This document shows positions 1,807 through 33,507 of a DNA stretch of 33,560 nt, in pieces (positions within the stretch are counted from its first letter, which is position 1; each line of letters starts with the position of its first letter). A model generated the notes under the pieces. It saw only the letters and a list, made by a program, of their open reading frames with translations. It was not told the DNA's origin and did no database searches. The position numbers were made by a program, and so were the translations under genes. The DNA is from Patescibacteria group bacterium. Lineage in GTDB: Bacteria; Patescibacteriota; Minisyncoccia; Phycocordibacterales; UBA9973. The stretch covers positions 1 through 33,560 of the forward strand of contig JAHJBA010000057.1 of the NCBI GenBank assembly GCA_018813625.1, read 5' to 3'.

Positions 1807-1873
1807 GTCCAGATAGCAGGTTTAATAAAGTTTAAAGGTGCGCTTTGCGCATTATTAAAATTCACTACGGGGT
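1807..1873. repeat. Family C palindromic element, copy C1 (degenerate left arm)
   Basis: The right arm ATTATTAAAATTCACTACGGGG and the apical GCGCTTTGCGC match copies C2-C4. The left arm is only partly complementary. Confidence 0.55.
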
Positions 1874-1900
1874 TTGCAAAAAAAAAGTTTATGTTATATA
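1873..1900 (+). promoter_or_regulatory. Putative promoter of fusA (extended -10)
   Basis: TTTGCA (1873-1878), 16-nt spacer, TGtTATATA (TG 1892-1893, hexamer 1895-1900), directly after element C1. Confidence 0.45.
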
Positions 1901-4419: not shown

Positions 4420-4455
4420 AGCCTTTTGTTTTGACAACACGAGGCTTTTTTTATT
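4419..4455 (+). terminator. Putative rho-independent terminator
   Basis: AGCCTTTTGTT-ttgac-AACACGAGGCT hairpin followed by TTTTTTTATTT. Confidence 0.55.
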
Positions 4456-4457
4456 TG

Positions 4458-4525
4458 ATCCCGTAGTAGATTTTGATGATGCCCTTAAGGCGCGCTTTGC
4501 GCTTCATCAAAATTCACTACCGGAT
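4458..4525. repeat. Family C palindromic element, copy C2
   Basis: ATCCCGTAGTAGATTTTGATGA ... GCGCGCTTTGCGC ... TCATCAAAATTCACTACCGGAT. About 22-bp arms, preceded by TTGAT; the last T begins the TTGACA -35 box. Confidence 0.85.
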
Positions 4526-4552
4526 TGACATTGTTTTCTAATTTGCTATTAT
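4525..4552 (+). promoter_or_regulatory. Sigma70-like promoter upstream of tuf
   Basis: TTGACA (4525-4530), 16-nt spacer, TATTAT (4547-4552). Confidence 0.6.
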
Positions 4553-5963: not shown

Positions 5964-6407
5964 ATGACAACATCAGAAACAAAAGTAAAAAAGCCGAAAG
6001 CGGTAAAAGCGACAAAAGCAACGAAGACAGTTAAAGCAGTCGCTAAAACGACCACTAAGGATTCCAAAGAGCCGAAAACAAAAAAGAAAAAAGAGGATGG
6101 GAAAGTGGTACTTCGCATCAGAGTTCGTGCCTACGAGAGCAAGATACTAGATGCGTCAGTCAAACAAATTATAGATACCGCAATGCGTTACGATGCCACT
6201 GTCGTTGGGCCGGTTCCTTTGCCAACGGAGATTAAGAAATATACGGTTAATCGTGCTTCTTTTATCTACAAAAATACACGAGAACAATTTGAAATAAGAG
6301 TACATAAAAGATTAATTGATATTATTAACCCGTCAGCAAAAACAGTTGAAGCGCTTACTAACCTTTCGCTTCCTTCGGGAGTTGATATTGACGTGAAGAT
6401 GCTGTAA
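5964..6407 (+). CDS. rpsJ: 30S ribosomal protein S10 with a ~45-aa Lys-rich N-terminal extension
   Basis: The C-terminal ~100 aa (LRIRVRAYESKILD...PLPT...) are canonical S10. The N-terminus is KKPKAVKATKATK...KTKKKK. Confidence 0.95.
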   Translation: MTTSETKVKKPKAVKATKATKTVKAVAKTTTKDSKEPKTKKKKEDGKVVLRIRVRAYESKILDASVKQIIDTAMRYDATVVGPVPLPTEIKKYTVNRASFIYKNTREQFEIRVHKRLIDIINPSAKTVEALTNLSLPSGVDIDVKML

Positions 6408-6414
6408 GAAGGAA

Positions 6415-6544
6415 ATGAATCCCGTTAGAAGCCGCGATCGCAATTTAAAAATAGATAAAAATATGAAATCAAATATAGAAAAAATTAATAACATAAAACA
6501 TCAGATATGCGAGTTGATCGCGATCTGCTTCTAAACAGGATGAA
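6415..6544 (+). repeat. Family A start-codon hairpin element, copy A1 (between rpsJ and rplC)
   Basis: ATGAA|TCCCGTTAGAAGCCGCGATCGC ...~75 nt A-rich... GATCGCGATCTGCTTCTAAACAGG|ATGAA. Long inverted repeat with a duplicated ATGAA. Confidence 0.85.
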
Positions 6545-7154
6545 ATTTATTCTTGGAACAAAAGAAAATATGATTGAGTATTTTTCTGAAGACGGTACAG
6601 TCATACCTGTAACGGCTGTTTTGGCTGGTCCAGTGACCGTGACCAGGGTGTTTGAAAAATCCAAGGATGGATATAATGCGGTGCAGGTTGGTTTTGGTGT
6701 TCAAAAAAAACACAGAATAAGCAAAGCAAGTATAGGCCAAATGAAAGGTGGTTTTTACAAAAATCTTAAGGAATTCAGACTAAAGCCCACCGATTCAACC
6801 GATTTCAAAGAAGGTGACATAATTGATGTCTCGGCTTTTTCCATTGGCGATAAATTGATAATTTCTGGTACTTCAAAAGGAAAAGGTTTTCAGGGAGTCG
6901 TTAAGCGACATGGCTTTGGTGGTGGTCCTAGAACGCACGGGCAGAAACATTCAGAAAGAGAACCTGGATCGATTGGTGGGGGACTAAGAACCCATGTTCC
7001 TAAAGGGATGAGGATGGCAGGTAGAATGGGACAGGATCGTATCACTCAGAAAAATTTGAAGGTTATTTTCACAGACAAGGAAAATAACATTATGTTAATT
7101 AAGGGTGCAGTACCTGGCAGGCGTGGCAGTTTGGTTGAAATAATAAGTAGATAG
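6540..7154 (+). CDS. rplC: 50S ribosomal protein L3
   Basis: MKFILGTKENM... is a canonical L3 N-terminus; KGKGFQGVVKRHGFGGGPRTHG motif. The track start at 6507 lies inside repeat A1. Confidence 0.93.
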   Translation: MKFILGTKENMIEYFSEDGTVIPVTAVLAGPVTVTRVFEKSKDGYNAVQVGFGVQKKHRISKASIGQMKGGFYKNLKEFRLKPTDSTDFKEGDIIDVSAFSIGDKLIISGTSKGKGFQGVVKRHGFGGGPRTHGQKHSEREPGSIGGGLRTHVPKGMRMAGRMGQDRITQKNLKVIFTDKENNIMLIKGAVPGRRGSLVEIISR

Positions 7155-7156
7155 AT

Positions 7157-7284
7157 ATGGATCCCGTTAGAAGTCGCGATCGCGATTATAATGGAAATAA
7201 AAACATGAAAGAAGATAATAAAACACAAAAAAATATTGAAACTTCCGAAAATACCAGATCGCGACCTACTTCTAACGGGATGGA
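7157..7284 (+). repeat. Family A element, copy A2 (between rplC and rplD)
   Basis: ATGGA|TCCCGTTAGAAGTCGCGATCGCG ... AGATCGCGACCTACTTCTAACGGG|ATGGA. 14-bp perfect outer stem plus a 7-bp CGCGATC/GATCGCG inner stem. Confidence 0.85.
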
Positions 7285-7939
7285 AGCAAAAATTTACAAT
7301 CAAAAAGGAATTGAAAAAGGAAAAATAATTCTTTCAGAGAAGGTTTTTGGTGCTAAGTGGCGAGCTGATTTGGTTCATCAGGTCGTAGAAGGCATGCGTT
7401 CTAATAAAAGAGCTGGTACAGCGGATACAAAAGGTAGAGGGGAGGTTTCTGGAGGAGGAAAGAAGCCTTGGAAACAAAAAGGAACAGGACGTGCTCGTCA
7501 TGGATCCACACGAAGCCCTATTTGGGTTGGAGGGGGTGTTACCCATGGGCCTCTTGCAGAAAAGAACTATAAAAGGAAGATTTCGAAGACAATGCGTGCA
7601 CAAGCTTTATTTTCAGTTTTGTCAAAAAAATTAAAAGACGAGGAGATACTCTTTGTTGATTCTTTATCCTTGCCCGGAATTAAGACAAAAGACGCCGTGG
7701 AAGTAATGAAAAATTTAGCTAAGGCCTCAGGATTTAAAATGATCGCTGAATCAAAAAAACCTAAAGCTCTTGTGGCTCTCTATGAGAGAAACGAGAAAGC
7801 AGAAAAAAGTTTTAGAAATTTATCTCAACTTGAAATGGTTTTTTTAAAAAACTTAAACCCCGTAGATGTTTTGAATCATAGATATCTTTTGATAGAAAAT
7901 CCAGAAGAAAGTGTTAAGTTTTTAGAAAGTCGAGGTTAA
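7280..7939 (+). CDS. rplD: 50S ribosomal protein L4
   Basis: MEAKIYNQKG...; KPWKQKGTGRARHGSTRSPIWVGGGVTHGP motif. The upstream in-frame 41 codons (from 7157) are repeat A2. Confidence 0.88.
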   Translation: MEAKIYNQKGIEKGKIILSEKVFGAKWRADLVHQVVEGMRSNKRAGTADTKGRGEVSGGGKKPWKQKGTGRARHGSTRSPIWVGGGVTHGPLAEKNYKRKISKTMRAQALFSVLSKKLKDEEILFVDSLSLPGIKTKDAVEVMKNLAKASGFKMIAESKKPKALVALYERNEKAEKSFRNLSQLEMVFLKNLNPVDVLNHRYLLIENPEESVKFLESRG

Positions 7940-7943
7940 AAAT

Positions 7944-8016
7944 ATACTTGTCCCGTGCTAAATTTTTGATTACGGGGCATAAAGATGAAGATTATTAATA
8001 AAATTTTAGTACTGGG
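7944..8016 (+). repeat. Family B hairpin element, copy B1 (between rplD and rplW)
   Basis: ATACTTGTCCCGTGCTAAATTTTTGATTACGGGGCATAAAGATGAAGATTATTAATAAAATTTTAGTACTGGG, immediately followed by the ATG of rplW. Confidence 0.85.
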
Positions 8017-8292
8017 ATGATAACGATGAAAATAATTAAAAAACCAAGAGTTACCGAGAAGGCATCTTTCGTGGCAGAACAGAATGTTTACACTTTTGAT
8101 GTCCCAAAGTCTGCAAATAAAACGGAGATTAAAAAAGCAATTTTTGAACTTTATAAAGTAAAGCCAGTTAAAGTAAATATTTTAACAGTTCCATCAAAGA
8201 AGATTTTTGTTAGAGGAAAAGTTGGGACAAAGAGTGGTGGTAAAAAAGTTCTTGTTTATTTAAAAAAAGAAGATAAGATAGAAATTATTTAA
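8017..8292 (+). CDS. rplW: 50S ribosomal protein L23
   Basis: IIKKPRVTEKA... is L23-like; position between L4 and L2. The start could also be the ATG at 8026. Confidence 0.92.
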   Translation: MITMKIIKKPRVTEKASFVAEQNVYTFDVPKSANKTEIKKAIFELYKVKPVKVNILTVPSKKIFVRGKVGTKSGGKKVLVYLKKEDKIEII

Positions 8293-14730: not shown

Positions 14731-15303
14731 ATGGAAAAAACAAATGAAAAAAAGAATAATCGTCGGACTTCTTCTTTTAGTAAACCAAAACCTGAATTTG
14801 ATCAGAAAATTGTGGATATCCGTCGTGTAACTCGTGTGGTTGCTGGCGGACGTAGATTTTCTTTTAGTGTTGTATTGGTGGCGGGAGACAGAAAAGGATC
14901 TATTGGTCTTGGGTTAGGAAAGGCGGGAGACACCTCTTTGGCGATAAACAAAGCCCTCAGAAATGCTAAGAAAAATATGATAAAACTTAACTTAACAAAA
15001 ACAATGTCAATTCCGCACGAACTTTCCGCAAAATTTTCAAGTTCAAGTATAATTATTATACCCAACAAAGGACGTGGCCTTGTAGCAGGCTCAGTGATTC
15101 GTGACATTGTTAAGTTAGCTGGGATTAAGGATATTACTGGAAAAATCTTATCTGGCAGTAAAAACAAGCTTAATAATGCTAAGGCTGTTATGACAGCACT
15201 TTCTATTATTTCTAGCAAGTATTCAAAGCCCATATTGAGGGAAGAGGAGAACGAGAAAAATGTTTTGAAGGGCGATTTAGCAGAAGTCGAGGAAGATAAA
15301 TAA
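14731..15303 (+). CDS. rpsE: 30S ribosomal protein S5 (with terminal extensions)
   Basis: IVDIRRVTRVVAGGRRFSFSVVLVAGDRKGSIGLGLGKA motif; 190 aa. Confidence 0.93.
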   Translation: MEKTNEKKNNRRTSSFSKPKPEFDQKIVDIRRVTRVVAGGRRFSFSVVLVAGDRKGSIGLGLGKAGDTSLAINKALRNAKKNMIKLNLTKTMSIPHELSAKFSSSSIIIIPNKGRGLVAGSVIRDIVKLAGIKDITGKILSGSKNKLNNAKAVMTALSIISSKYSKPILREEENEKNVLKGDLAEVEEDK

Positions 15304-15307
15304 ATTT

Positions 15308-15379
15308 TACTTGTCCCGTACTAAATTTTTGATTACGGGGCATAACAATGAAGATTATTAATAAAATTTTAGTACTGGG
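15308..15379 (+). repeat. Family B hairpin element, copy B2 (between rpsE and rplO, in the usual L30 slot)
   Basis: TACTTGTCCCGTACTAAATTTTTGATTACGGGGCATAACAATGAAGATTATTAATAAAATTTTAGTACTGGG followed by the ATG of rplO. Confidence 0.85.
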
Positions 15380-15817
15380 ATGCAGATACATAATTTAAAA
15401 AGACAACATAAGAACAAAAAAGATCGCATGGTTGGCCGTGGAGGAAAACATGCAAAAACATCGGGTCGTGGAGGTAAGGGGCAGACCGCAAGGGCTGGCA
15501 ATAAGCGACGTCCGGAATTACGTGATATCATAAAAAAATTACCGAAAAACCGTGGATATAAATTTAATTCTTTTCAAATAAAACCGGTTGGTGTTTCGTT
15601 TGATAAAATAATGGGAGCATATTCGAATGGTGGGACAGTTGACCCTATTAGTCTACTTGAATTGAAGATAATAAGTAAAAAGAAAGGGATTGTTCCAAAA
15701 GTTAAAATTTTGAACGGCAAAAAAGACTTTAACTTAAAAATAAAAATTTCAAAGTGTTTTGTTTCTGATTCTGTTAAAAAAAAGATAGCAGAATTGGGCG
15801 GAGAAATTGAACTATAA
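15380..15817 (+). CDS. rplO: 50S ribosomal protein L15
   Basis: GRGGKHAKTSGRGGKGQTARAG motif; position before secY. Confidence 0.93.
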   Translation: MQIHNLKRQHKNKKDRMVGRGGKHAKTSGRGGKGQTARAGNKRRPELRDIIKKLPKNRGYKFNSFQIKPVGVSFDKIMGAYSNGGTVDPISLLELKIISKKKGIVPKVKILNGKKDFNLKIKISKCFVSDSVKKKIAELGGEIEL

Positions 15818-17093: not shown

Positions 17094-17099
17094 TTTTTG

Positions 17100-17164
17100 A
17101 CCTGGTAGTGAATTTTGATGATATTTAAATGCGTTTTGCGCGTCATCAAAATCTACTACCGGGT
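17100..17164. repeat. Family C palindromic element, copy C3 (arms in flipped orientation)
   Basis: ACCTGGTAGTGAATTTTGATGA ... GCGTTTTGCGC ... TCATCAAAATCTACTACCGGGT. Preceded by TTGAC; the last T begins the TTGATT -35 box. Confidence 0.85.
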
Positions 17165-17192
17165 TGATTATTTTCTAAAAAGTGTGTATTCT
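17164..17192 (+). promoter_or_regulatory. Sigma70-like promoter of adk; geometry predicts a leaderless mRNA
   Basis: TTGATT (17164-17169), 17-nt spacer, TATTCT (17187-17192), then 6 nt to the ATG at 17199. Confidence 0.55.
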
Positions 17193-17198
17193 TTTGAT

Positions 17199-17783
17199 AT
17201 GAATTCAAAAGCTTTTTTGTTTTTTGGACGATCGGGGTGTGGAAAAGGCACCCAAGCTAAACTCTTGGCAGATTTTTTAAGGGATAAAGGGAGAAAGGTG
17301 GTTTATGTGGAGACAGGGGGTCGGTTTCGAGAATTTATGAAAAAAGAAAGTTATTCTAGTCAATTGACACAAAATATTTTACATGAAGGAGGTTTGTTGC
17401 CGGTTTTTTTACCTATCTGGCTTTGGACCAATATTTTGGTTGATAATTTTTCTGGTGAAGAGGATTTAATTTTAGATGGATTATGCAGGAGAAAAGAGGA
17501 ATCAATGGCACTTGATTCTGCTTTTGATTTTTATAAAATCGAGAGACCGAATATCATTTTAATGAATGTCTCTAGAGAATGGTCTTTTGATAGAATGATG
17601 AAAAGAAAGCGCCCAGATGACACGCCGGAGAAGATACAAAATCGCCTAGATTGGTTTACAAAAGATGTTATGCCTGCGATTGATTATTTTCGTGAGAAGC
17701 CGGAATGTAATTTTATTGAAGTAAACGGAGAACAGTCTATTGAAGACGTGCACAAGGATATCATTAAAGCCTTAGGACTGTAA
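17199..17783 (+). CDS. adk: Adenylate kinase-like nucleoside monophosphate kinase
   Basis: MNSKAFLFFGRSGCGKGTQAKLL P-loop; position after secY. The track start at 17115 runs through repeat C3. Confidence 0.85.
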   Translation: MNSKAFLFFGRSGCGKGTQAKLLADFLRDKGRKVVYVETGGRFREFMKKESYSSQLTQNILHEGGLLPVFLPIWLWTNILVDNFSGEEDLILDGLCRRKEESMALDSAFDFYKIERPNIILMNVSREWSFDRMMKRKRPDDTPEKIQNRLDWFTKDVMPAIDYFREKPECNFIEVNGEQSIEDVHKDIIKALGL

Positions 17784-17856
17784 TACTTGTCCCGTATGAA
17801 ATTTTTGATTAAACGAAATAAAGATGAATACAAAAAATAAAAATTTTCATACTGGG
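17783..17856 (+). repeat. Family B hairpin element, copy B3 (divergent; between adk and the pyrH-like gene)
   Basis: ATACTTGTCCCGTATGAAATTTTTGATTAAACGAAATAAAGATGAATACAAAAAATAAAAATTTTCATACTGGG followed by ATG at 17857. Both arms changed in a compensatory way. Confidence 0.8.
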
Positions 17857-18537
17857 ATGGAAGAAATAATAATCATTTCACTCGGAGGTTCACTCATTAT
17901 TCCCGATCAGATAGATGTGGATTTTTTGAAAGACTTCAAAAATCTGATTCTTTTGCATATTTCACAAGGGAAAAAATTTATAATCATAACCGGCGGTGGA
18001 AAGATCTGCAGAAGGTATCAAGAAGTTGCTAAAGAAATTTCGAATCCCTCAAATGAAGACTTAGATTGGATAGGGATTGCTTCTCTTAAACTAAATGCGG
18101 AACTGCTCAGGGTTATTTTTAGTGAAAAGGCACACGAAAAAGTTGTTAGTGATCCACACCAGAAATTGTCTTTTGAAAAGCCGATTATCATTTGTTCAGC
18201 TTATAAGCCTGGAAGGAGTACGGATTGGGATACCGTGATAGTGGCCAAGAATGTTGGTGCCAAAAAAGTAATCAATCTTTCGAACATTGACTATGTTTAT
18301 GATTCTGACCCGAAGATAAACCCAAATGCTAAAAAGATAGAAAAGATATCTTGGGCGGAATATCGTTCAATTATCCCAAAAGAATGGAATCCAGGCTTAA
18401 ATACTCCTTTTGACCCTATTGCTTCAGAAATGGCTGAAAAAGAGGGAATGCAGGTCGTAATTATGAACGGCAAGCCAGTGAGTAATTTAGCTAAGTGTTT
18501 GAATGGCGAGAAGTTTCTTGGAACGATAATAGAATGA
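17857..18537 (+). CDS. pyrH: Amino-acid-kinase-fold protein, archaeal-type UMP kinase-like
   Basis: MEEIIIISLGGS..., ITGGGK, ...SDPKINPNAKKIEKIS... and ...GTIIE resemble archaeal-type uridylate kinases of ~225 aa. The start is chosen at the ATG that follows repeat B3. Confidence 0.7.
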   Translation: MEEIIIISLGGSLIIPDQIDVDFLKDFKNLILLHISQGKKFIIITGGGKICRRYQEVAKEISNPSNEDLDWIGIASLKLNAELLRVIFSEKAHEKVVSDPHQKLSFEKPIIICSAYKPGRSTDWDTVIVAKNVGAKKVINLSNIDYVYDSDPKINPNAKKIEKISWAEYRSIIPKEWNPGLNTPFDPIASEMAEKEGMQVVIMNGKPVSNLAKCLNGEKFLGTIIE

Positions 18538-20201
18538 ACGAAAAAAACGAAAAAAAAATATGTAAGACTTGTGGAAAGGATTTTGAAATAAGAAAAGAGG
18601 ATTTTATATTTTTTAAACAGGTAAAAACTGCGTCACCACTAGATTGTCCTGATTGTCGCATGGCGAGGCGTTTAGTGTTTCGGAATGAAAGAACTCTTTA
18701 TAAGAGAGCGTGTGATCTTTGTAAAAGAGATTTAATAACAGTTTATTCGCCAGAATCAGATTTTAAGGTTTATTGTCATGATTGTTGGTGGAGTGATTCT
18801 TGGGATCCAAAAAGCTTTGCGATGAATTATGATTTAAATAAATCTTTTTTTGAACAATATAAAGAGTTACAAAAAAAAGTTCCTAGACAAAGCATGGCAG
18901 CGGTAAATAATGTTAGAAGTGATTATACTAATGGTTCTGCGGAAAATAAAGACTGTTATTTAATTTTTGCTGCTGATTATAATGAGGACTGCATGTATGG
19001 TAGGTTGCTTCAAAGAGATAAAAATTGTCTTGATTGTGCTTTTTTGCATGAATCAGAACTTTGTTATGAATGTATTGATTCTAGAAGTTGTTTTAAGTGT
19101 ATGTTTTGCGAGCAATGTCAGTCATCAAGTGATTTGCTGTTTTGTTATAATATGAGAGATTCAAATAATTGTATTCTTTGTACAAATGGAAGACATTTAT
19201 CTAATTCAATTTTAAATGTTAAATATTCTAAAGAAGAATTTGAAAAGAAAAAAGCTGAAATTCTTTCTAGTTATGAAAATATTGAAAAAGCAAAAGAAGA
19301 GTTTTCTGAATTAAAGAAAAATACTATTGTAAAATATGCTTGTCAAACAAAATGTAACGAGGTTACTGGTAATTATTTACACAATTGTCATCAGGGAATA
19401 ATGCTTTATGATACTTATGATTCAAAAAACTGTTCTTATATGACAGATACCGAAAGTCCTATTGACAGTCAAGACTGTAATAATTATTATTATAAACCAC
19501 AATTTGGATATAACGTTATGGGAGCATTAGAAGGTAGTCAATTAAAAAATAGTGCTTTCGTTTTTTATTGTAACGAAGTTGAATATTGTGAAAATTGTCA
19601 TCATTTAATAAACGGGATAGGATGTAGCGCTATTCGCAGAGGGGAATATATGATTCTTAACAAACAATACACAAAAGAAGAATATTATAAGTTGAAAGAA
19701 AAGATAGAAGAACAGATGAAAAAGGAAGGAACTTACGGGCAATTTTTTCCAGCTGAACTTGCGCCGTTCGGATATAATGAAACATTAGCGCAAGATTATA
19801 TTCCATTAAAAAAAGAAGAAGCTTTGAAAAGAGGTTTTAGTTGGCAAGAAAAAATAACAGGTACTTATGGAAAAGAAACCATTAAAAAAAGCGAGATACC
19901 AAGTTCTATAGAAAATATAGATGAAAGTATTTTAAAAGAAATATTAGTGTGTGAAGAATGTAATAAAAATTTTAGAATTACTGAAGCAGAGTTAAGTTTT
20001 TACAAAAGAATGCATTTACCATTACCACATAAAGATTTTGAGTGTAGACATAAAGATAGAATGTTAAAGAGAAATCCACGTAAACTCTGGCATAGAAAAT
20101 GCATGAAAGAAGGTTGTAAGAATGAATTTGAGACAAGTTATGCACCTGATCGACCAGAGATTGTATATTGTGAGGACTGTTATAAAAAAGAGGTATACTA
20201 A
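18534..20201 (+). CDS. Cysteine-rich protein (555 aa) with homologous zinc-ribbon-like modules at both termini; function unknown
   Basis: The ATG overlaps the pyrH-like stop (ATGA at 18534-18537). N-terminal CKTCGKDF...CPDCR...CDLC...CHDCWW and C-terminal CEECNKNF...ECRHKDR...CEDCY. The central region is dense in C-x2-C. Confidence 0.8.
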   Translation: MNEKNEKKICKTCGKDFEIRKEDFIFFKQVKTASPLDCPDCRMARRLVFRNERTLYKRACDLCKRDLITVYSPESDFKVYCHDCWWSDSWDPKSFAMNYDLNKSFFEQYKELQKKVPRQSMAAVNNVRSDYTNGSAENKDCYLIFAADYNEDCMYGRLLQRDKNCLDCAFLHESELCYECIDSRSCFKCMFCEQCQSSSDLLFCYNMRDSNNCILCTNGRHLSNSILNVKYSKEEFEKKKAEILSSYENIEKAKEEFSELKKNTIVKYACQTKCNEVTGNYLHNCHQGIMLYDTYDSKNCSYMTDTESPIDSQDCNNYYYKPQFGYNVMGALEGSQLKNSAFVFYCNEVEYCENCHHLINGIGCSAIRRGEYMILNKQYTKEEYYKLKEKIEEQMKKEGTYGQFFPAELAPFGYNETLAQDYIPLKKEEALKRGFSWQEKITGTYGKETIKKSEIPSSIENIDESILKEILVCEECNKNFRITEAELSFYKRMHLPLPHKDFECRHKDRMLKRNPRKLWHRKCMKEGCKNEFETSYAPDRPEIVYCEDCYKKEVY

Positions 20202-20203
20202 AA

Positions 20204-20276
20204 ATACTTGTCCCGTACTGAATTTTTGATTACGGGGCATAAAGATGAAGATTATTAATAAAATTTTAGTACTGGG
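20204..20276 (+). repeat. Family B hairpin element, copy B4 (between the Cys-rich ORF and map)
   Basis: ATACTTGTCCCGTACTGAATTTTTGATTACGGGGCATAAAGATGAAGATTATTAATAAAATTTTAGTACTGGG followed by the ATG of map. Confidence 0.85.
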
Positions 20277-21047
20277 ATGGCAATAATAATTAAAACACCA
20301 GAGGAAATAAAAATAATAAGAGAAGGAGGGAAAAGACTCGCTACTGTTTTAAACAAAGTTAAGGAGATGGTTGCTCCTGGTATTTCGACTAAGGATTTGG
20401 ACGATTATGCAAGAAAGCTTATCAGTGAGATGGGAGACTATCCATCTTTTTTAAATTATTCACCCGATGGTGCCAGCAAGCCCTATCCAGCGGCTCTTTG
20501 CGTATCGGTTAATGATGAAGTTGTACACGGCATTCCTAACAAAGATAGAATTTTGCAAGAAGGAGATATCGTTTCTATAGATCTGGGATTGAAGCATAAA
20601 AATCTTTTTACCGACATGGCCATGACAGTTTCGGTTGGCGAAATAAGTTCGTCTTCAAAGAAGCTTTTAGAAACAACGGAGAGGGCATTGTATGTTGGAA
20701 TAAATGCTGTGCGAGCAGGAAATAGAATAGGAGATATAGGTCATGCTATAGAAAGTTTTGTTCGTCCACATAGGTATGGCATTGTAGAAGTTTTGGCGGG
20801 GCATGGTGTTGGTAAGGCGGTTCACGAGGATCCATATATTACAAATTTTGGCAAAAAGGGAATGGGGGAGAAATTAGTTCCAGGTATGGTTATAGCCATA
20901 GAGCCGATGATAAATAATGGAACTAAAAATGTGACCCTAGATAAGGACGGTTATACTTTTCGTACCGCAGACGGAAAAAAGAGTGCACACTTCGAGCACA
21001 CCATTCTTGTCACGGAAGGGGAGCCAGAAATCTTGACTCGAATATAA
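20277..21047 (+). CDS. map: Type I methionine aminopeptidase
   Basis: 256 aa; HGIPN, DxG...D, HGVG, EPM and EHT metal-ligand pattern. Confidence 0.96.
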   Translation: MAIIIKTPEEIKIIREGGKRLATVLNKVKEMVAPGISTKDLDDYARKLISEMGDYPSFLNYSPDGASKPYPAALCVSVNDEVVHGIPNKDRILQEGDIVSIDLGLKHKNLFTDMAMTVSVGEISSSSKKLLETTERALYVGINAVRAGNRIGDIGHAIESFVRPHRYGIVEVLAGHGVGKAVHEDPYITNFGKKGMGEKLVPGMVIAIEPMINNGTKNVTLDKDGYTFRTADGKKSAHFEHTILVTEGEPEILTRI

Positions 21048-29150: not shown

Positions 29151-30488
29151 CAACCGGACTTGGTTAAATATAGTATTTATGCGATTTTCTTCTTTGGCCT
29201 CGCCAATTATGCGTATTACTGGCTCAGTATTGGAGGGTCTAATATGAACCCATGAAGAGTCTGGCCAGTCGAAGCGTAGGCCGTCTAGGGTGTTTGTAGA
29301 TGCCTCTTTGAACTTTGCCTTAAGTTTCTCATAAAGTAGAGTTAGGTCGCCAGAAAAGGTAATTTTATCTTTTTTCATAAAATATTTAGGCAGGCTCTCT
29401 ATAATTTCTGATATATTTTTTTTCTCTCTTGCCATAAGCTCGAGAACAAGAGCAATACCGGCCAGGCTATCTCTGGCTGTATTTATTTTAGAATAAATGA
29501 CCCCACCATTTCCTTCTCCTCCTATGAGTGCGCCTCTTTCAATCATTTTTTCGACTACATTAGGTTCGCCGACTTTTGTTCTAAAAACTTTTTTATTGTA
29601 ATTATTTGCCAAGTCTTCACACATTTTTGAGGTAGACATATTTAAGATCACATCGCTAGGGTTTTTAGATAGAACACTTTTTACGGCGAGTGCTAGTGTA
29701 TATTCTTCATTTAAAATTTCTCCTTTTTCATTTGCGAGTACCAGACGGTCAGCATCGGGGTCCTGGGCGAATCCTATATCTGAATTATTTTTAGAGACTG
29801 CTTCCGCTAGTTGTTTTAAATTTTTTGCCAGTGGTTCTGGTTCGTGCGCGAATTCTCCATTTTGTTCTTCGTTGATTTGAGAAACTTCACAGCCGAGTTC
29901 CTCCAGTAATTTTTTTGTGATTGTACTGCCTGCGCTATTTATAGGATCGTGGGTAACTTTAAATTTTTTGCTTTTGATCAGGTTTACGTCTATATTTTTT
30001 AATACTTCTTTTATGTGTATCTTTTGATAGCTAGAATTGTCGCAAACTTCTTCCTCATTTTCTTTTTGTGAAAAATTTTTTTCATCTTCAATTAAATTTT
30101 TTCTATTTTCCTCGATTTTTTCTATTTCTTTTTGGGTGGCGAATAGACCATTTTTATTTATAAATTTAAGACCGTTATATTCTCTAGGATTATGCGAAGC
30201 AGTTATCATTATTCCTCCACCAAAAGAGAGTTTTCTTGCTAGAAGAAGCATCGATGGAGTAGGGATGATGCCGGCGTATTCTCCCTCTAAGCCTTCTTTT
30301 TTTAATGCTAATTTTATAGCTTTAAATATTTGTGGTCCGGTTTTGCGTGCATCTCGCCCGATTAAAATTTTATGGCCTCCTTGTTCTTTTATCATTTTTG
30401 CAAAAGCACGCCCAAAATCAAAAGCGATTTTCTCGTCTAAATCTTTGCCCCATATTCCTCTATATCCCGAAACATTCAATTTTGGCAT
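29142..30488 (-). CDS. glmM: Phosphoglucosamine mutase / phosphohexomutase family protein
   Basis: ITASHNPREYNGLKF phosphoserine loop; DPDADR; GGEGNGG. The gene symbol is tentative because PGM/PMM cannot be excluded. Confidence 0.8.
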   Translation of the reverse strand: MPKLNVSGYRGIWGKDLDEKIAFDFGRAFAKMIKEQGGHKILIGRDARKTGPQIFKAIKLALKKEGLEGEYAGIIPTPSMLLLARKLSFGGGIMITASHNPREYNGLKFINKNGLFATQKEIEKIEENRKNLIEDEKNFSQKENEEEVCDNSSYQKIHIKEVLKNIDVNLIKSKKFKVTHDPINSAGSTITKKLLEELGCEVSQINEEQNGEFAHEPEPLAKNLKQLAEAVSKNNSDIGFAQDPDADRLVLANEKGEILNEEYTLALAVKSVLSKNPSDVILNMSTSKMCEDLANNYNKKVFRTKVGEPNVVEKMIERGALIGGEGNGGVIYSKINTARDSLAGIALVLELMAREKKNISEIIESLPKYFMKKDKITFSGDLTLLYEKLKAKFKEASTNTLDGLRFDWPDSSWVHIRPSNTEPVIRIIGEAKEENRINTIFNQVRLIL

Positions 30489-30549: not shown

Positions 30550-30557
30550 CTTAGATG

Positions 30558-30947
30558 TGGAGATGGGGGGAATTGAGCCCCCGTGCAGAAGGTTTTTGTA
30601 AGGAAGTCTACATACTTAGCGCGCTTGTTTGTTTAAATTAAAAAATTATTAAGCGAGCGAAATATTTTTTAATCGATCCTCTATGTTTTGGAAGAAAGTC
30701 GAGGTATTCTTTTTCCTATCCCGATAATATTATGCCTTACCCTATATATCGGAAGTCTATAGGGAAGACACCAACTTACGCTAGAGCGTATGCTGGAGCA
30801 AATCCGAACGCATTACCGAAGTAAGGCGAACGAACTGCCTTAGTAGCTAATTTTGCAATTAGACATTTGAGCGAAGTTTTGCGAGATTGCGCTCATTCTC
30901 GGTATGCATCAATAACAAAAGGCCAACTGTCTATGCCTTGCATCCCC
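30558..30947 (-). ncRNA. ssrA: tmRNA (SsrA)
   Basis: Minus strand 5' GGGGATGCAAGGCATAGACAG pairs with the 3' ...GGGGGCTCAATTCCCCC-CATCTCC-A. This gives an acceptor stem with a G3.U pair and a T-arm. An internal frame ends ...GNAFGFAPAYALA-TAA (stop 30776-30778). Lies 11 nt downstream of smpB. Confidence 0.8.
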
Positions 30948-31467: not shown

Positions 31468-31595
31468 ATGGATCCCGTTAGAAATCATTCAGTTAATTGA
31501 AATTACGGGAAATAATATATTGAATTAGCTTGTATAGTCGTTTTTAGTAATTTAACTACGGAAATCTAAAGATTTCCTATTTCTAACGGGATGGA
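31468..31595 (+). repeat. Family A element, copy A4 (on the ftsH start codon)
   Basis: ATGGA|TCCCGTTAGAAAT ... ATTTCTAACGGG|ATGGA. 14-bp perfect terminal stem; the interior differs from A1-A3 and has the internal hairpin GGAAATC-taaa-GATTTCC. Confidence 0.85.
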
Positions 31596-33507
31596 TTTTA
31601 ATTTGCTCAACCAAAAAAAAGCTCCCAATAAAGGAAAGAAAGGAAAAGGTGGTTCAAAATTTTCAGGAAGCATAGCCGGAGCTATTTTAATTTTTATGCT
31701 TATAACAGCACTGTATTTAGTGGTGTCTGATAATACAAAAAATGTGCCGGAGACCCCGCTTTCTGATCTGGCGAAAAGTGTTTCAGCTGGAGAGGTTAAA
31801 AAGATTTTAGTTGAAGGTGAAAAACTTACAATTACTTATAAAAATGATGAAATTAAAAAATCAAAAAAGGAGGTAGAATCTTCTCTCTCGCAAACACTTT
31901 TTAATTATGGCGTTGGGCCTGAAGCTCTTGCAGGGACAGAAATAGAAGTAAAGAATGAAAGTGGATTTGGATATTGGCTCGTTAATGCTCTGCCTTTTCT
32001 TTTGCCTATTGCTTTTATTATATTTTTCTTCTGGTATCTCTCACGTCAAGTTAAAGGAGCAGGGATGCAAGCATTTACTTTTGGGCAGTCGAAGGCGCGT
32101 ATTACGGACCCGAATGATAAAAACAATAAGGTAACTTTTAAAGATGTCGCTGGATGCAAAGAGGCCAAGGAAGAGTTGAAAGAAATCGTAGATTTTTTAA
32201 GAAGTCCGAAAAAGTTTTTAGATATTGGCGCGAGAATTCCAAAAGGAGTGATTTTAACTGGTGCTCCTGGCACTGGGAAAACACTGCTTGCTAGGGCTGT
32301 CGCAGGAGAGGCCAGTGTTCCTTTCTTTCATCTTTCTGGATCAGAATTTGTGGAAATGTTTGTTGGCGTTGGAGCTTCGCGTGTGCGAGATTTATTTAAG
32401 CTGGCAAAGAGAGCTGCGCCGTCTATCATATTTGTGGATGAAATTGATGCCATTGGAAGGACTCGTGGTGGAGGTTTTGGGGGAGGTAACGATGAACGTG
32501 AGCAGACATTAAATCAGATATTAGTTGAAATGGATGGATTTGAACCAAATGAGAAAGTGATAGTTATGGCTGCCACAAACAGGCCAGATGTGCTTGACCC
32601 AGCCCTTATTCGCCCGGGACGCTTTGACAGAAAAGTGATACTTGACATGCCTGATAGAGCGGATCGTGAGGAAATTTTAAAAATTCATGCTGTTAAAAAA
32701 CCACTAGCTGAGGATGTTAATTTAAAACTGATTGCGGAGAGGACCCCAGGTTTTTCTGGTGCTGATTTGTATTCTTTGATGAATGAAGGCGCCATATTGG
32801 CGGCTCGTGAAAATCGCAAACAAGTTTTTCAGTTCGATCTCATCCGAGCAATCGAAAAGGTAATGCTTGGTCCCGAGCGTAAGAGTCATTTGCTCTCCAA
32901 AAAAGAGAAAGAAATTACAGCTTACCATGAAGCGGGACATGCCCTGATTGCTTCGGTGTTACCCAATGCGGATCCTGTGCATAAAGTTTCTATTATTGCT
33001 CGCGGGAGTGCTGGGGGATACACCCTTAAACTTCCTCTTGAAGAAAAACACTTGCAATCCAAGAAGGAATTTATAGATGACATTGCTGTGTCGCTTGGAG
33101 GATATGTGGCAGAAAAAATGATTTTTGGGGATGTTACGACCGGACCATCAAGTGATTTACAAGGGGCAACGAATTTAGCACGTGCCATGGTGACGCGTTT
33201 TGGAATGTCCGATGTTATCGGCCCTGTAGCGGTTACGGAGGGTGGCGGAAGAAATCGTTGGGCAGAGGTTCTGGAAAAAGAATATTCCGAAACAGTTTCG
33301 ACCAAGATTGACTCGGAAGTTTCAAAGATAATAGATAAGGGAATAAAAACCGCAGAGAAGATATTGTCAGAAAATAAGAAGGCCTTCATTGCCCTTGCTA
33401 ATAAGCTCATTGAAGTTGAGACGTTAGAACAGGAAGAGTATGAGCAAATAATAATTGCACACGGTATAACACCTAAGAAACTAGATAAAGAGGAGAAAAT
33501 TGCATAA
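31591..33507 (+). CDS. ftsH: ATP-dependent zinc metalloprotease FtsH
   Basis: 638 aa; [17 protein letters not shown] Walker A, DEID Walker B, SRH region, HEAGHAL zinc site and two N-terminal TM segments. Confidence 0.97.

Follow-up and report, generated by a model that had tools for sequence, protein, structure and literature searches.

A palindromic repeat of about 72 nt, here called the family B element, occurs four times in the window, by which we mean the whole stretch of 33,560 nucleotides that was analysed (contig JAHJBA010000057.1 of the Patescibacteria group bacterium assembly GCA_018813625.1). The long-range helix formed by the two arms of the element (P1) is under selection, and a competing hairpin in its 5′ half is obligatory only where no upstream open reading frame (ORF) ends at the foot of the helix. 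The element is apparently an undescribed family of structured repeats. We propose, with about even confidence for and against, that family B elements are mobile and co-transcribed and that each hides the start codon of the next gene in a hairpin, which would be opened by the ribosome terminating upstream or by the competing hairpin.

Family B copies in the window

The window covers the str/S10/spc ribosomal-protein region with a low G+C content (36.5%), and its L15 protein shares 91-92% identity with that of Candidatus Nomurabacteria/Paceibacterota metagenome-assembled genomes (MAGs). Each of the four copies (Table 1) occupies an entire intergenic gap, starting with ACTTGTCCCGT 1-6 nt from the upstream stop codon and ending with ACTGGG directly 5′ of the next ATG; ordinary intergenic spacers in the window measure 3-30 nt. 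The R1 covariance model is strongly strand-specific on these copies (about 84-90 bits vs 19-30), giving 83.6 bits on the + strand and 29.7 bits on the - strand for copy 3.

Copy 3 pairs GUAUGAAA with UUUCAUAC, and the other copies pair GUACUAAA with UUUAGUAC. The double compensatory change described for copy 3 in the initial annotation is real: the pairs 17797T-17849A and 17798G-17848C take the place of C-G and T-A. The same annotation gave uniform arms to the other three copies, which holds for the pairs at the compensated positions and not for the whole arm, since the exact left arm CCCGTACTAAATTTT occurs only in copy 2, with CCCGTGCTAAA in copy 1 and CCCGTACTGAA in copy 4. In copies 1 and 4 an A-to-G change in the left arm gives a G.U wobble with the right arm unchanged. 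All four right arms have a bulged T (ACTGGG) and a T.T mismatch, and the predicted minimum-free-energy helix extends via the bulged U and the CCC/GGG pairing into the A, U and G of the start codon.

The gene downstream of copy 3 encodes a protein of the amino-acid-kinase family. Position 17857 is its true start, because the orthologues begin M(E/K/Q)EE, typified by MEE and MKEE, directly after adenylate kinase (Adk). The interval 17857-20201 between adk and map holds this PF00696 gene and a 555-aa ORF, which has no Pfam match and an N-terminus that reads like a Cys-rich zinc ribbon (CKTCGKDF). The direct order of Adk and the kinase-family gene is kept in about 75 related metagenomic contigs; in locus L088, an element stands between Adk and Map, which comes next.

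Covariation of the long-range helix

One genome per bacterial species was scanned with the pattern ACTTGTCCCGT-N45-62-CTGGGATG, in which the inner arms were left free. At least 117 loci matched, and about 103 of the matches listed are from Nomurabacteria, Paceibacterota or Patescibacteria MAGs. The covariation test with more homologues that had been recommended for the helix was run on an alignment of 107 members with an 18-pair helix, using 500 shuffles and a control in which the partners were slid by 1-3 columns. Standard pairs are formed in 97.4% of the helix cells. The number of doubly changed cells is 55, against 6.5±2.4 in the shuffled alignments, none of which (0/500) attained 55, and the covariation score is 0.110, compared with 0.025 for the shuffles and 0.007-0.023 for the slid partners. 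Copy 3 had been presented as direct evidence of selection on the helix; taken within the window it is suggestive, and it is the 107 members, far beyond chance, that establish the selection claimed.

The outer seven pairs were set by the search pattern and carry no covariation information. The signal sits in three inner pairs, 12/73 (AU 94, UA 10), 13/72 (CG 78, GC 9, AU 8, UA 7, UG 3) and 14/71 (UA 92, GC 6, AU 3, CG 3), which show all four Watson-Crick types, broken cells being very rare. At least 12 different arm variants are fully complementary, and the AUG/CAU arms of copy 3 recur in L085, in a different genome and before a different downstream gene. Uncompensated arm changes, which had been named as the observation that would speak against the helix, were looked for and are present in L041, L099, L073 and L098 (about 5%), where they are heavily outnumbered. 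The pairing is not forced by the search pattern, because in the 14 pattern matches from other phyla only 0-5 of the 6 free positions are paired (mean 2.5). R1 matches beyond the pattern have only pairing-compatible changes (CCU/GGG in L075; G.U for G-C in L011 and L107).

The termini of the family are conserved and the inner arms variable. Arms of family B are AU-rich, with loops of 25-45 nt (4-90 nt across all forms), and the loop classes are conserved across species. A mini-ORF beginning at 17824 had been pointed out as in frame with the downstream gene; the frame is correct, but the feature is not conserved, since ATA and not ATG stands there in most of the 107 members, and a mini-ORF in the loop as the helix opener is ruled out for the same reason.

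A scan of the four window copies against Rfam 15 gave no match at E<=1, and one of eight other loci (classes ii and iii, nested and tandem forms) gave nothing at the members. No description of the motif was found in literature searches, a query with the sequence string returning only primers and unrelated sequences, and a scan of viral contigs gave a single match, judged to be due to chance. Element derivatives are also found, namely a tandem array of 43-nt units (L114:4535-4615) and the sites L032:6361-6398, L066:2347-2384, L079:4915-4958 and L044:1247-1321; both L044 and L066 have a CCCGU...ACUGGGA hairpin that encloses a second one. Short-loop derivatives have the same ends followed by U-rich tracts, which gives them a terminator-like look.

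Insertion history and the link to start codons

According to the initial annotation, copy 3 was a drifted relative of copies 1, 2 and 4 that had lost TACGGGG. The motif is indeed absent, but its loss by drift from a copy-1-like element is contradicted by two observations. The interior of copy 3 is less similar to copies 1, 2 and 4 than to members of class ii (A-rich loops without TACGGGG), its nearest class, with 77% identity to L019, L089 and L027. In addition, orthologues of the amino-acid-kinase-family protein (62-79% identity) were present in 80 metagenomic loci, about 75 of which had enough upstream DNA, and in all of these about 75 the junction is free of the element, the Adk stop being followed by the start codon (TAATG, TAATATG or TAAT/ATG). 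Deleting 17785-17856 from the window restores such a junction (CTGTAAT/ATGGAAGAA). Because about 75 orthologous junctions lack the element, copy 3 is a 72-nt insertion placed exactly between TAAT and ATG, and judged by these comparisons it is an independent, lineage-specific one.

When downstream proteins were compared across all loci, filled and empty orthologous pairs were obtained for about 25 genes. L008 is filled (gtgtattattaagtcat/element/ATG) and L023 is empty (gtgtattattaagccat/ATG); the filled L064 has an orthologue in L056 that reads TGTTATAAT-N7-ATG, and the filled L043 has one in L022 that reads TGATAAAAT-N6-ATG. In all three pairs the element is the whole difference between the two sites. 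No target-site duplication was found in L008 vs L023 or in the window vs L139, L173 and L184, where filling adds 72 nt to the empty site and nothing else, and duplication of an AT target is ruled out by this comparison. The composition of the 5′ flanks is that of an ordinary pre-ATG context. Positions of the element within ribosomal-protein operons vary, being before L15 here and before SecY, S5, S14, L24, L14 or S9 elsewhere.

The loci, about 0.9 Mb in total, contain TGTCCCGT 128 times, and in 111 of these cases it belongs to a complete element that ends in GGGATG. The ATG after the element is the canonical N-terminus of the downstream protein (L14, L24, S14, LepA, SerS, NusG and Map), and all members are co-oriented with the downstream gene. 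The gap between element and ATG is always 0 nt, whereas random insertion into spacers of 3-30 nt would give a variable gap.

Initiation in the host and context of the elements

Leaders of the window's genes are A/T-rich and contain no Shine-Dalgarno (SD) sequence. A -10-like hexamer, often TGnTATAAT, ends exactly 6 nt before the ATG at 85 of 738 ORF starts in the loci (47 with extended TG), against a background of 5-25 at other spacings, and we read this peak as the signature of leaderless mRNAs. Such a hexamer also ends 6-7 nt before the first element base, A1, in 15 of 106 elements (10 at 6 nt and 5 at 7 nt); in copy 4 it is TATACT, ending 6 nt 5′ of the element. Since the elements share the -10 peak of leaderless genes, the first element base would replace the A of a leaderless AUG. 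For 51 of 105 elements a same-strand upstream stop codon lies 0-10 nt before the element, mostly at 1-4 nt and at 1 nt in copy 3, and for 12 more of the 105 it lies inside the 5′ half of the element.

Parcubacteria without uL1 mostly lack the anti-SD motif (PMC9297842). In L009, from a related MAG, NusG-L11 is followed by a membrane protein and not by L1 (2968-3969), and no L30 gene lies between S5 and L15 in the window (15303-15380); the two absences fit the Parcubacteria group without uL1 and uL30. None of the loci contains an rRNA gene. A SLOG-family gene starting at 27180 in the window has the upstream sequence TATAAT-TAAAAT-ATG (27150-27182).

Competing 5′ hairpin and the context rule

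In class i, nt 4-12 of the element (UGUCCCGUA) can pair with the interior UACGGGRCA (9 bp, about -12 kcal/mol), and the two states have similar predicted energies, -13 to -15 kcal/mol for the alternative one vs -16.5 to -21 kcal/mol for P1. Position 12 covaries with its partner in the alternative hairpin as well (A-U 61, U-A 5/5, G.U 1), and wobble pairs are tolerated (U6 with A 20 or G 19; G5 with C 20 or U 14), which fits pairing on the + strand.

Context classes were assigned from the predicted promoter, and the prefix of each member was folded minus the 3′ arm. The 5′ hairpin forms in 18/18 promoter-proximal members (median -11.2 kcal/mol) and in 30/60 operon-internal members (median -4.4 kcal/mol); the p-values for this difference (Fisher 4.8e-5, Mann-Whitney 4.4e-5) are optimistic, because the members are not phylogenetically independent. 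A first, cruder test of hairpin against context, made before the classification was refined, was not significant (p = 0.11). Copy 3, which starts 1 nt after the Adk stop and has no alternative hairpin, obeys the rule. It had been suggested from copy 3 that the TACGGGG pairing is dispensable or specific to a subfamily, and both are correct, the pairing being found in about 40-60% of members. Its dispensability in copy 3 would follow from the position, because the upstream ribosome, and not the 5′ hairpin, would open operon-internal copies.

Proposed start-codon mask and other explanations

In the mechanism that we propose, the element would insert without target duplication at the 5′ edge of a start codon and would be transcribed as part of the mRNA. 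The conserved ends (ACUUGUCCCGU ... AC-U-GGG/AUG) and the covarying inner arms would then form P1 with about 20 bp, looping out the insert and burying GGG-AUG, so that P1 acts as a translational gate which makes the insertion compatible with expression. When a stop codon occupies its A site, a ribosome covers about 10-12 nt beyond it. If that codon lies 1-4 nt before the element, a terminating ribosome would open element nt 4-9, the partners of GGG-AUG, and the inner helix would still keep the start codon next to it, giving translational coupling or re-initiation. At promoter-proximal copies, with no upstream ribosome, the first-transcribed 5′ hairpin would leave the A/U-rich 3′ arm and the AUG free. 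The features typical of masking are present: the start codon is predicted to pair in a long-range helix supported by covariation, and in 51 of 105 elements the upstream ORF ends within reach of a ribosome. Formation of P1 in vivo, its limiting effect on initiation and its opening by ribosomes or by the alternative hairpin are inferences on our part.

Besides the phylogenetic non-independence of members, several observations weigh against this mask. The three AUG pairs are weak (U.G, G.U and U-A) and were fixed by the search, and hence have no covariation evidence. Exceptions in the core helix are G.U in 9 cases and A.C in 5; these counts are similar, and therefore the wobble statistics cannot separate an RNA helix from a single-stranded DNA hairpin. 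Gating alone leaves the strong conservation of the termini and loop classes unexplained. The alternative hairpin is missing in 12/24 members of neither clear context, and L037 seems to have a promoter 14 nt upstream and no alternative hairpin.

A more ambitious idea, which we consider speculative and rather improbable, is that the element is a portable translation-start module for ribosomes without the anti-SD sequence, specialised for leaderless initiation or re-initiation. In one version a cut between GGG and AUG would regenerate a leaderless mRNA, the insertion removing itself as the equivalent of an intron in the 5′ untranslated region. In the other version, after the foot has melted, the inner helix at -5 to -12 would fill the ribosomal cleft of the SD/anti-SD duplex, and the mRNA would thereby supply a surrogate of that duplex in cis.

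The insertion history would also suit a purely selfish DNA palindrome, of the miniature inverted-repeat transposable element (MITE), REP or IS200/IS605-derived PATE type, with the RNA helix as a by-product, an explanation to which we assign a low probability. Its arms would be complementary for a single-stranded DNA hairpin or paired ends in mobility, and adjacency to start codons would come from a short target (CAT on the other strand) together with purging of disruptive insertions. Of the features of a MITE, the family has terminal inverted repeats, no coding capacity, many copies and presence or absence at orthologous sites, and it lacks a flanking target-site duplication. Mobility at orthologous sites without such a duplication, the operon positions that differ by genome, the conserved termini with variable inner arms, the short-loop, tandem and nested derivatives and the indecisive wobble counts (9 vs 5) agree with a selfish palindrome. 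The conserved bulge and mismatch are like those of hairpins recognised by HUH enzymes. The element always lies directly 5′ of ATG (CAT on the other strand) without duplication, although selection could equally yield that, and DNA mobility does not predict the mRNA-level signal of the context rule. The common orientation with downstream genes and the loop classes kept across species also speak against a selfish palindrome; no transposase was identified, and none was searched for. A processing signal, with an RNase III-type cut in the stem of about 20-24 bp or a cut after the G between GGG and AUG, seems to us similarly doubtful. Cleavage would release the insert and leave an mRNA that is again leaderless or nearly so, the hairpin remaining on the upstream fragment as a 3′ stabiliser, and this single mechanism would cover both promoter-proximal and operon-internal contexts. 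The element sits where the 5′-terminal AUG of a leaderless mRNA would be, with an invariable spacing of 0 nt; the sequences at the helix foot are highly conserved, as a recognition site would be; and the helix lengths of families B, C and A (20-24 bp) suit double-stranded RNA substrates. Against these points, we know of no nuclease with a cleavage site at the 3′ foot of a helix like this one, and processing does not predict an alternative hairpin obligatory only at promoter-proximal sites.

Effects on transcription are much less probable. In a transcription cassette, the hairpin would end or insulate upstream transcription and a loop promoter (TTGATT ... TATAAT-like) would drive the downstream gene. 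Members associated with FtsA and RibE do have TGnTATAAT at a fixed position in the loop, family A hairpins adjoin a -35-like TTGACA, and U-rich tracts follow the short-loop versions. The family B loops of 25-45 nt in an AU-rich helix are, however, followed by GGGAUG and an ORF with no U tract; the features of an intrinsic terminator are lacking in family B, only the short-loop derivatives being terminator-like. The -35-like/-10-like spacing in class i is poor (18-21 nt), and many members have a canonical upstream promoter whose predicted start is A1, because of which we regard the 5′ arm as transcribed; by these two observations a loop promoter is ruled out as a general explanation. We give hardly any credence to a riboswitch, or to an operator through which a protein would control a dedicated regulon. 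The bistable architecture of sequestering and anti-sequestering helices would suit either, and the ACUGGGAUG end, which we take to resemble GGA-containing sites of the CsrA type, finds no support in its context. The genes that follow the element have housekeeping functions with no relation to one another, orthologous sites show both gain and loss of the element, and a conserved multi-helix ligand pocket is absent, with loops of 4-90 nt. An integron attC site was also rejected: attC has the core sites R''(RYYYAAC)...R'(GTTRRRY) in that order within a cassette array, whereas here the motif order is reversed (GTTAGAA...TTCTAAC in related forms) and the context is a universally conserved ribosomal-protein operon.

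Comparison with known systems

Long-range mRNA masking helices give translational coupling in MS2 coat-replicase and in E. coli infC-rpmI-rplT. As in these systems, the downstream start would be masked by an upstream segment, and the helix would be opened by a ribosome that translates the upstream cistron or terminates on it. Unlike them, family B uses a cassette of about 72 nt that is portable, keeps its ends conserved and occurs at about 100 junctions unrelated to one another; it is predicted to bury the AUG itself, in an organism that lacks SD sequences, and brings its own alternative hairpin when it is at a 5′ end. The hok/sok-type mRNAs likewise have a first-formed 5′ hairpin that competes with a more stable long-range helix closing the translation start, but hok/sok is a single-gene toxin system with an antisense RNA, and family B is a repeated cassette before housekeeping genes.

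Among repeats, the element is like the Correia/NEMIS elements of Neisseria and ERIC in being a short, non-coding, multi-copy intergenic palindrome that is co-transcribed and forms a hairpin; subclasses by interior sequence and possible promoter-like boxes are further shared traits. Correia elements create a TA target duplication, carry terminal repeats of 26 bp and have no fixed position relative to start codons, whereas family B has no target duplication, an AUG spacing that is always 0 nt and a host of another phylum. With the IS200/IS605-derived PATEs and REP sequences it shares the lack of target duplication, a short fixed neighbouring sequence, imperfect hairpins with conserved extrahelical bases and dozens of copies per genome. 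The PATE/REP hairpins, which are HUH/Y1 substrates, are short and subterminal; the arms of family B lie 60 nt apart, and its context rule points to a role at the mRNA level.

Related elements and other features of the window

Two further families are listed in Table 1. Family C elements (125-130 nt) have a plan like that of family B, AUG[G/A]AUCCCGUUAGAAG ... CUUCUAACGGG/AUG, and their long-range helices of 21-24 bp end at the start codons of L3, L4, L35 and an FtsH-like gene. Their folding z-scores range from -3 to -5.3; an (A/U)ACGGGA alternative segment is present in two of the elements, and L069:5127-5198 is a shorter relative. Family A comprises hairpins of 25-30 bp that are nearly perfect, have arms similar to those of family B (CCCGTAGTAGATTTTGATGA...) and enclose a small G+C-rich inner hairpin; two copies were folded, with z-scores of -7 and -8. 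In the copies at 4455 and 17097 the 3′ arm continues into a -35-like TTGACA/TTGATT. At operon boundaries, family A may serve as a terminator or stabiliser joined to a promoter.

Other genes of the window include ribosomal protein S10 with a Lys/Thr-rich N-terminal extension of about 50 aa (5964-6407; the Pfam S10 domain covers residues 51-145), a 935-aa ORF with weak matches to TraG/VirD4-type coupling proteins (21723-24530), a 460-aa beta-CASP metallo-beta-lactamase that resembles RNase J and is a candidate mRNA 5′-end processing enzyme (25778-27160), and a transfer-messenger RNA gene on the - strand (30555-30947; RF00023, 113.8 bits), which was not called by ARAGORN.

Table 1. Coordinates of family B elements, parts of copy 3 and related elements in the window
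Feature	Position	Strand	Description	Basis
Family B copy 1	7946..8019	+	class i, L4/L23 gap; alternative hairpin 7949-7957 with 7971-7979	
Family B copy 2	15309..15382	+	class i, S5/L15 gap; alternative hairpin 15312-15320 with 15334-15342	
Family B copy 3	17785..17856	+	72-nt palindromic insert (ACTTGTCCCGT...ACTGGG), Adk/amino-acid-kinase junction	
Family B copy 4	20206..20279	+	class i, gap between 555-aa ORF and Map; alternative hairpin 20209-20217 with 20231-20239	
Adenylate kinase stop codon	17781..17783	+	1 nt before copy 3	
Copy 3 left arm	17791..17806	+	CCCGTATGAAATTTTT	
Copy 3 right arm	17839..17856	+	AAAAATTTTCATACTGGG, ATG (17857-17859) immediately after	
P1 5′ arm	17788..17806	+	UUGUCCCGUAUGAAAUUUUU; compensated positions 17797-17798	
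P1 3′ arm	17839..17859	+	AAAAAUUUUCAUAC-U-GGGAUG, start codon included; compensated positions 17848-17849; bulged U 17853	
Mini-ORF ATG	17824..17826	+	in frame with downstream gene, probably incidental	
Start codon of amino-acid-kinase-family gene	17857..17859	+	226-aa product; partly paired at P1 foot	Pfam PF00696; orthologue starts
Family C element	6414-6545			
Family C element	7157-7285			
Family C element	28391-28514	-		
Family C element	31468-31596			
Family A hairpin	4455-4527			
Family A hairpin	17097-17166			
Family A hairpin	29080-29154			
Family A hairpin, partial	1825-1876			

Implications

For annotation, the element explains the recurring "mini-ORFs" and N-terminal extensions that are called before ribosomal-protein genes in such genomes. 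Short synthetic transcripts allow direct tests of three mechanisms, namely coupling, processing that yields a leaderless mRNA, and a helix supplied in cis instead of the SD duplex. To our knowledge, there is no experimental work on initiation in uncultured bacteria of the Candidate Phyla Radiation without SD pairing, and this family offers a sequence-defined, multi-copy handle on the process in those bacteria. If the proposed mask is correct, a mobile insert would persist by folding itself away, even though its genome leaves hardly any space between genes.

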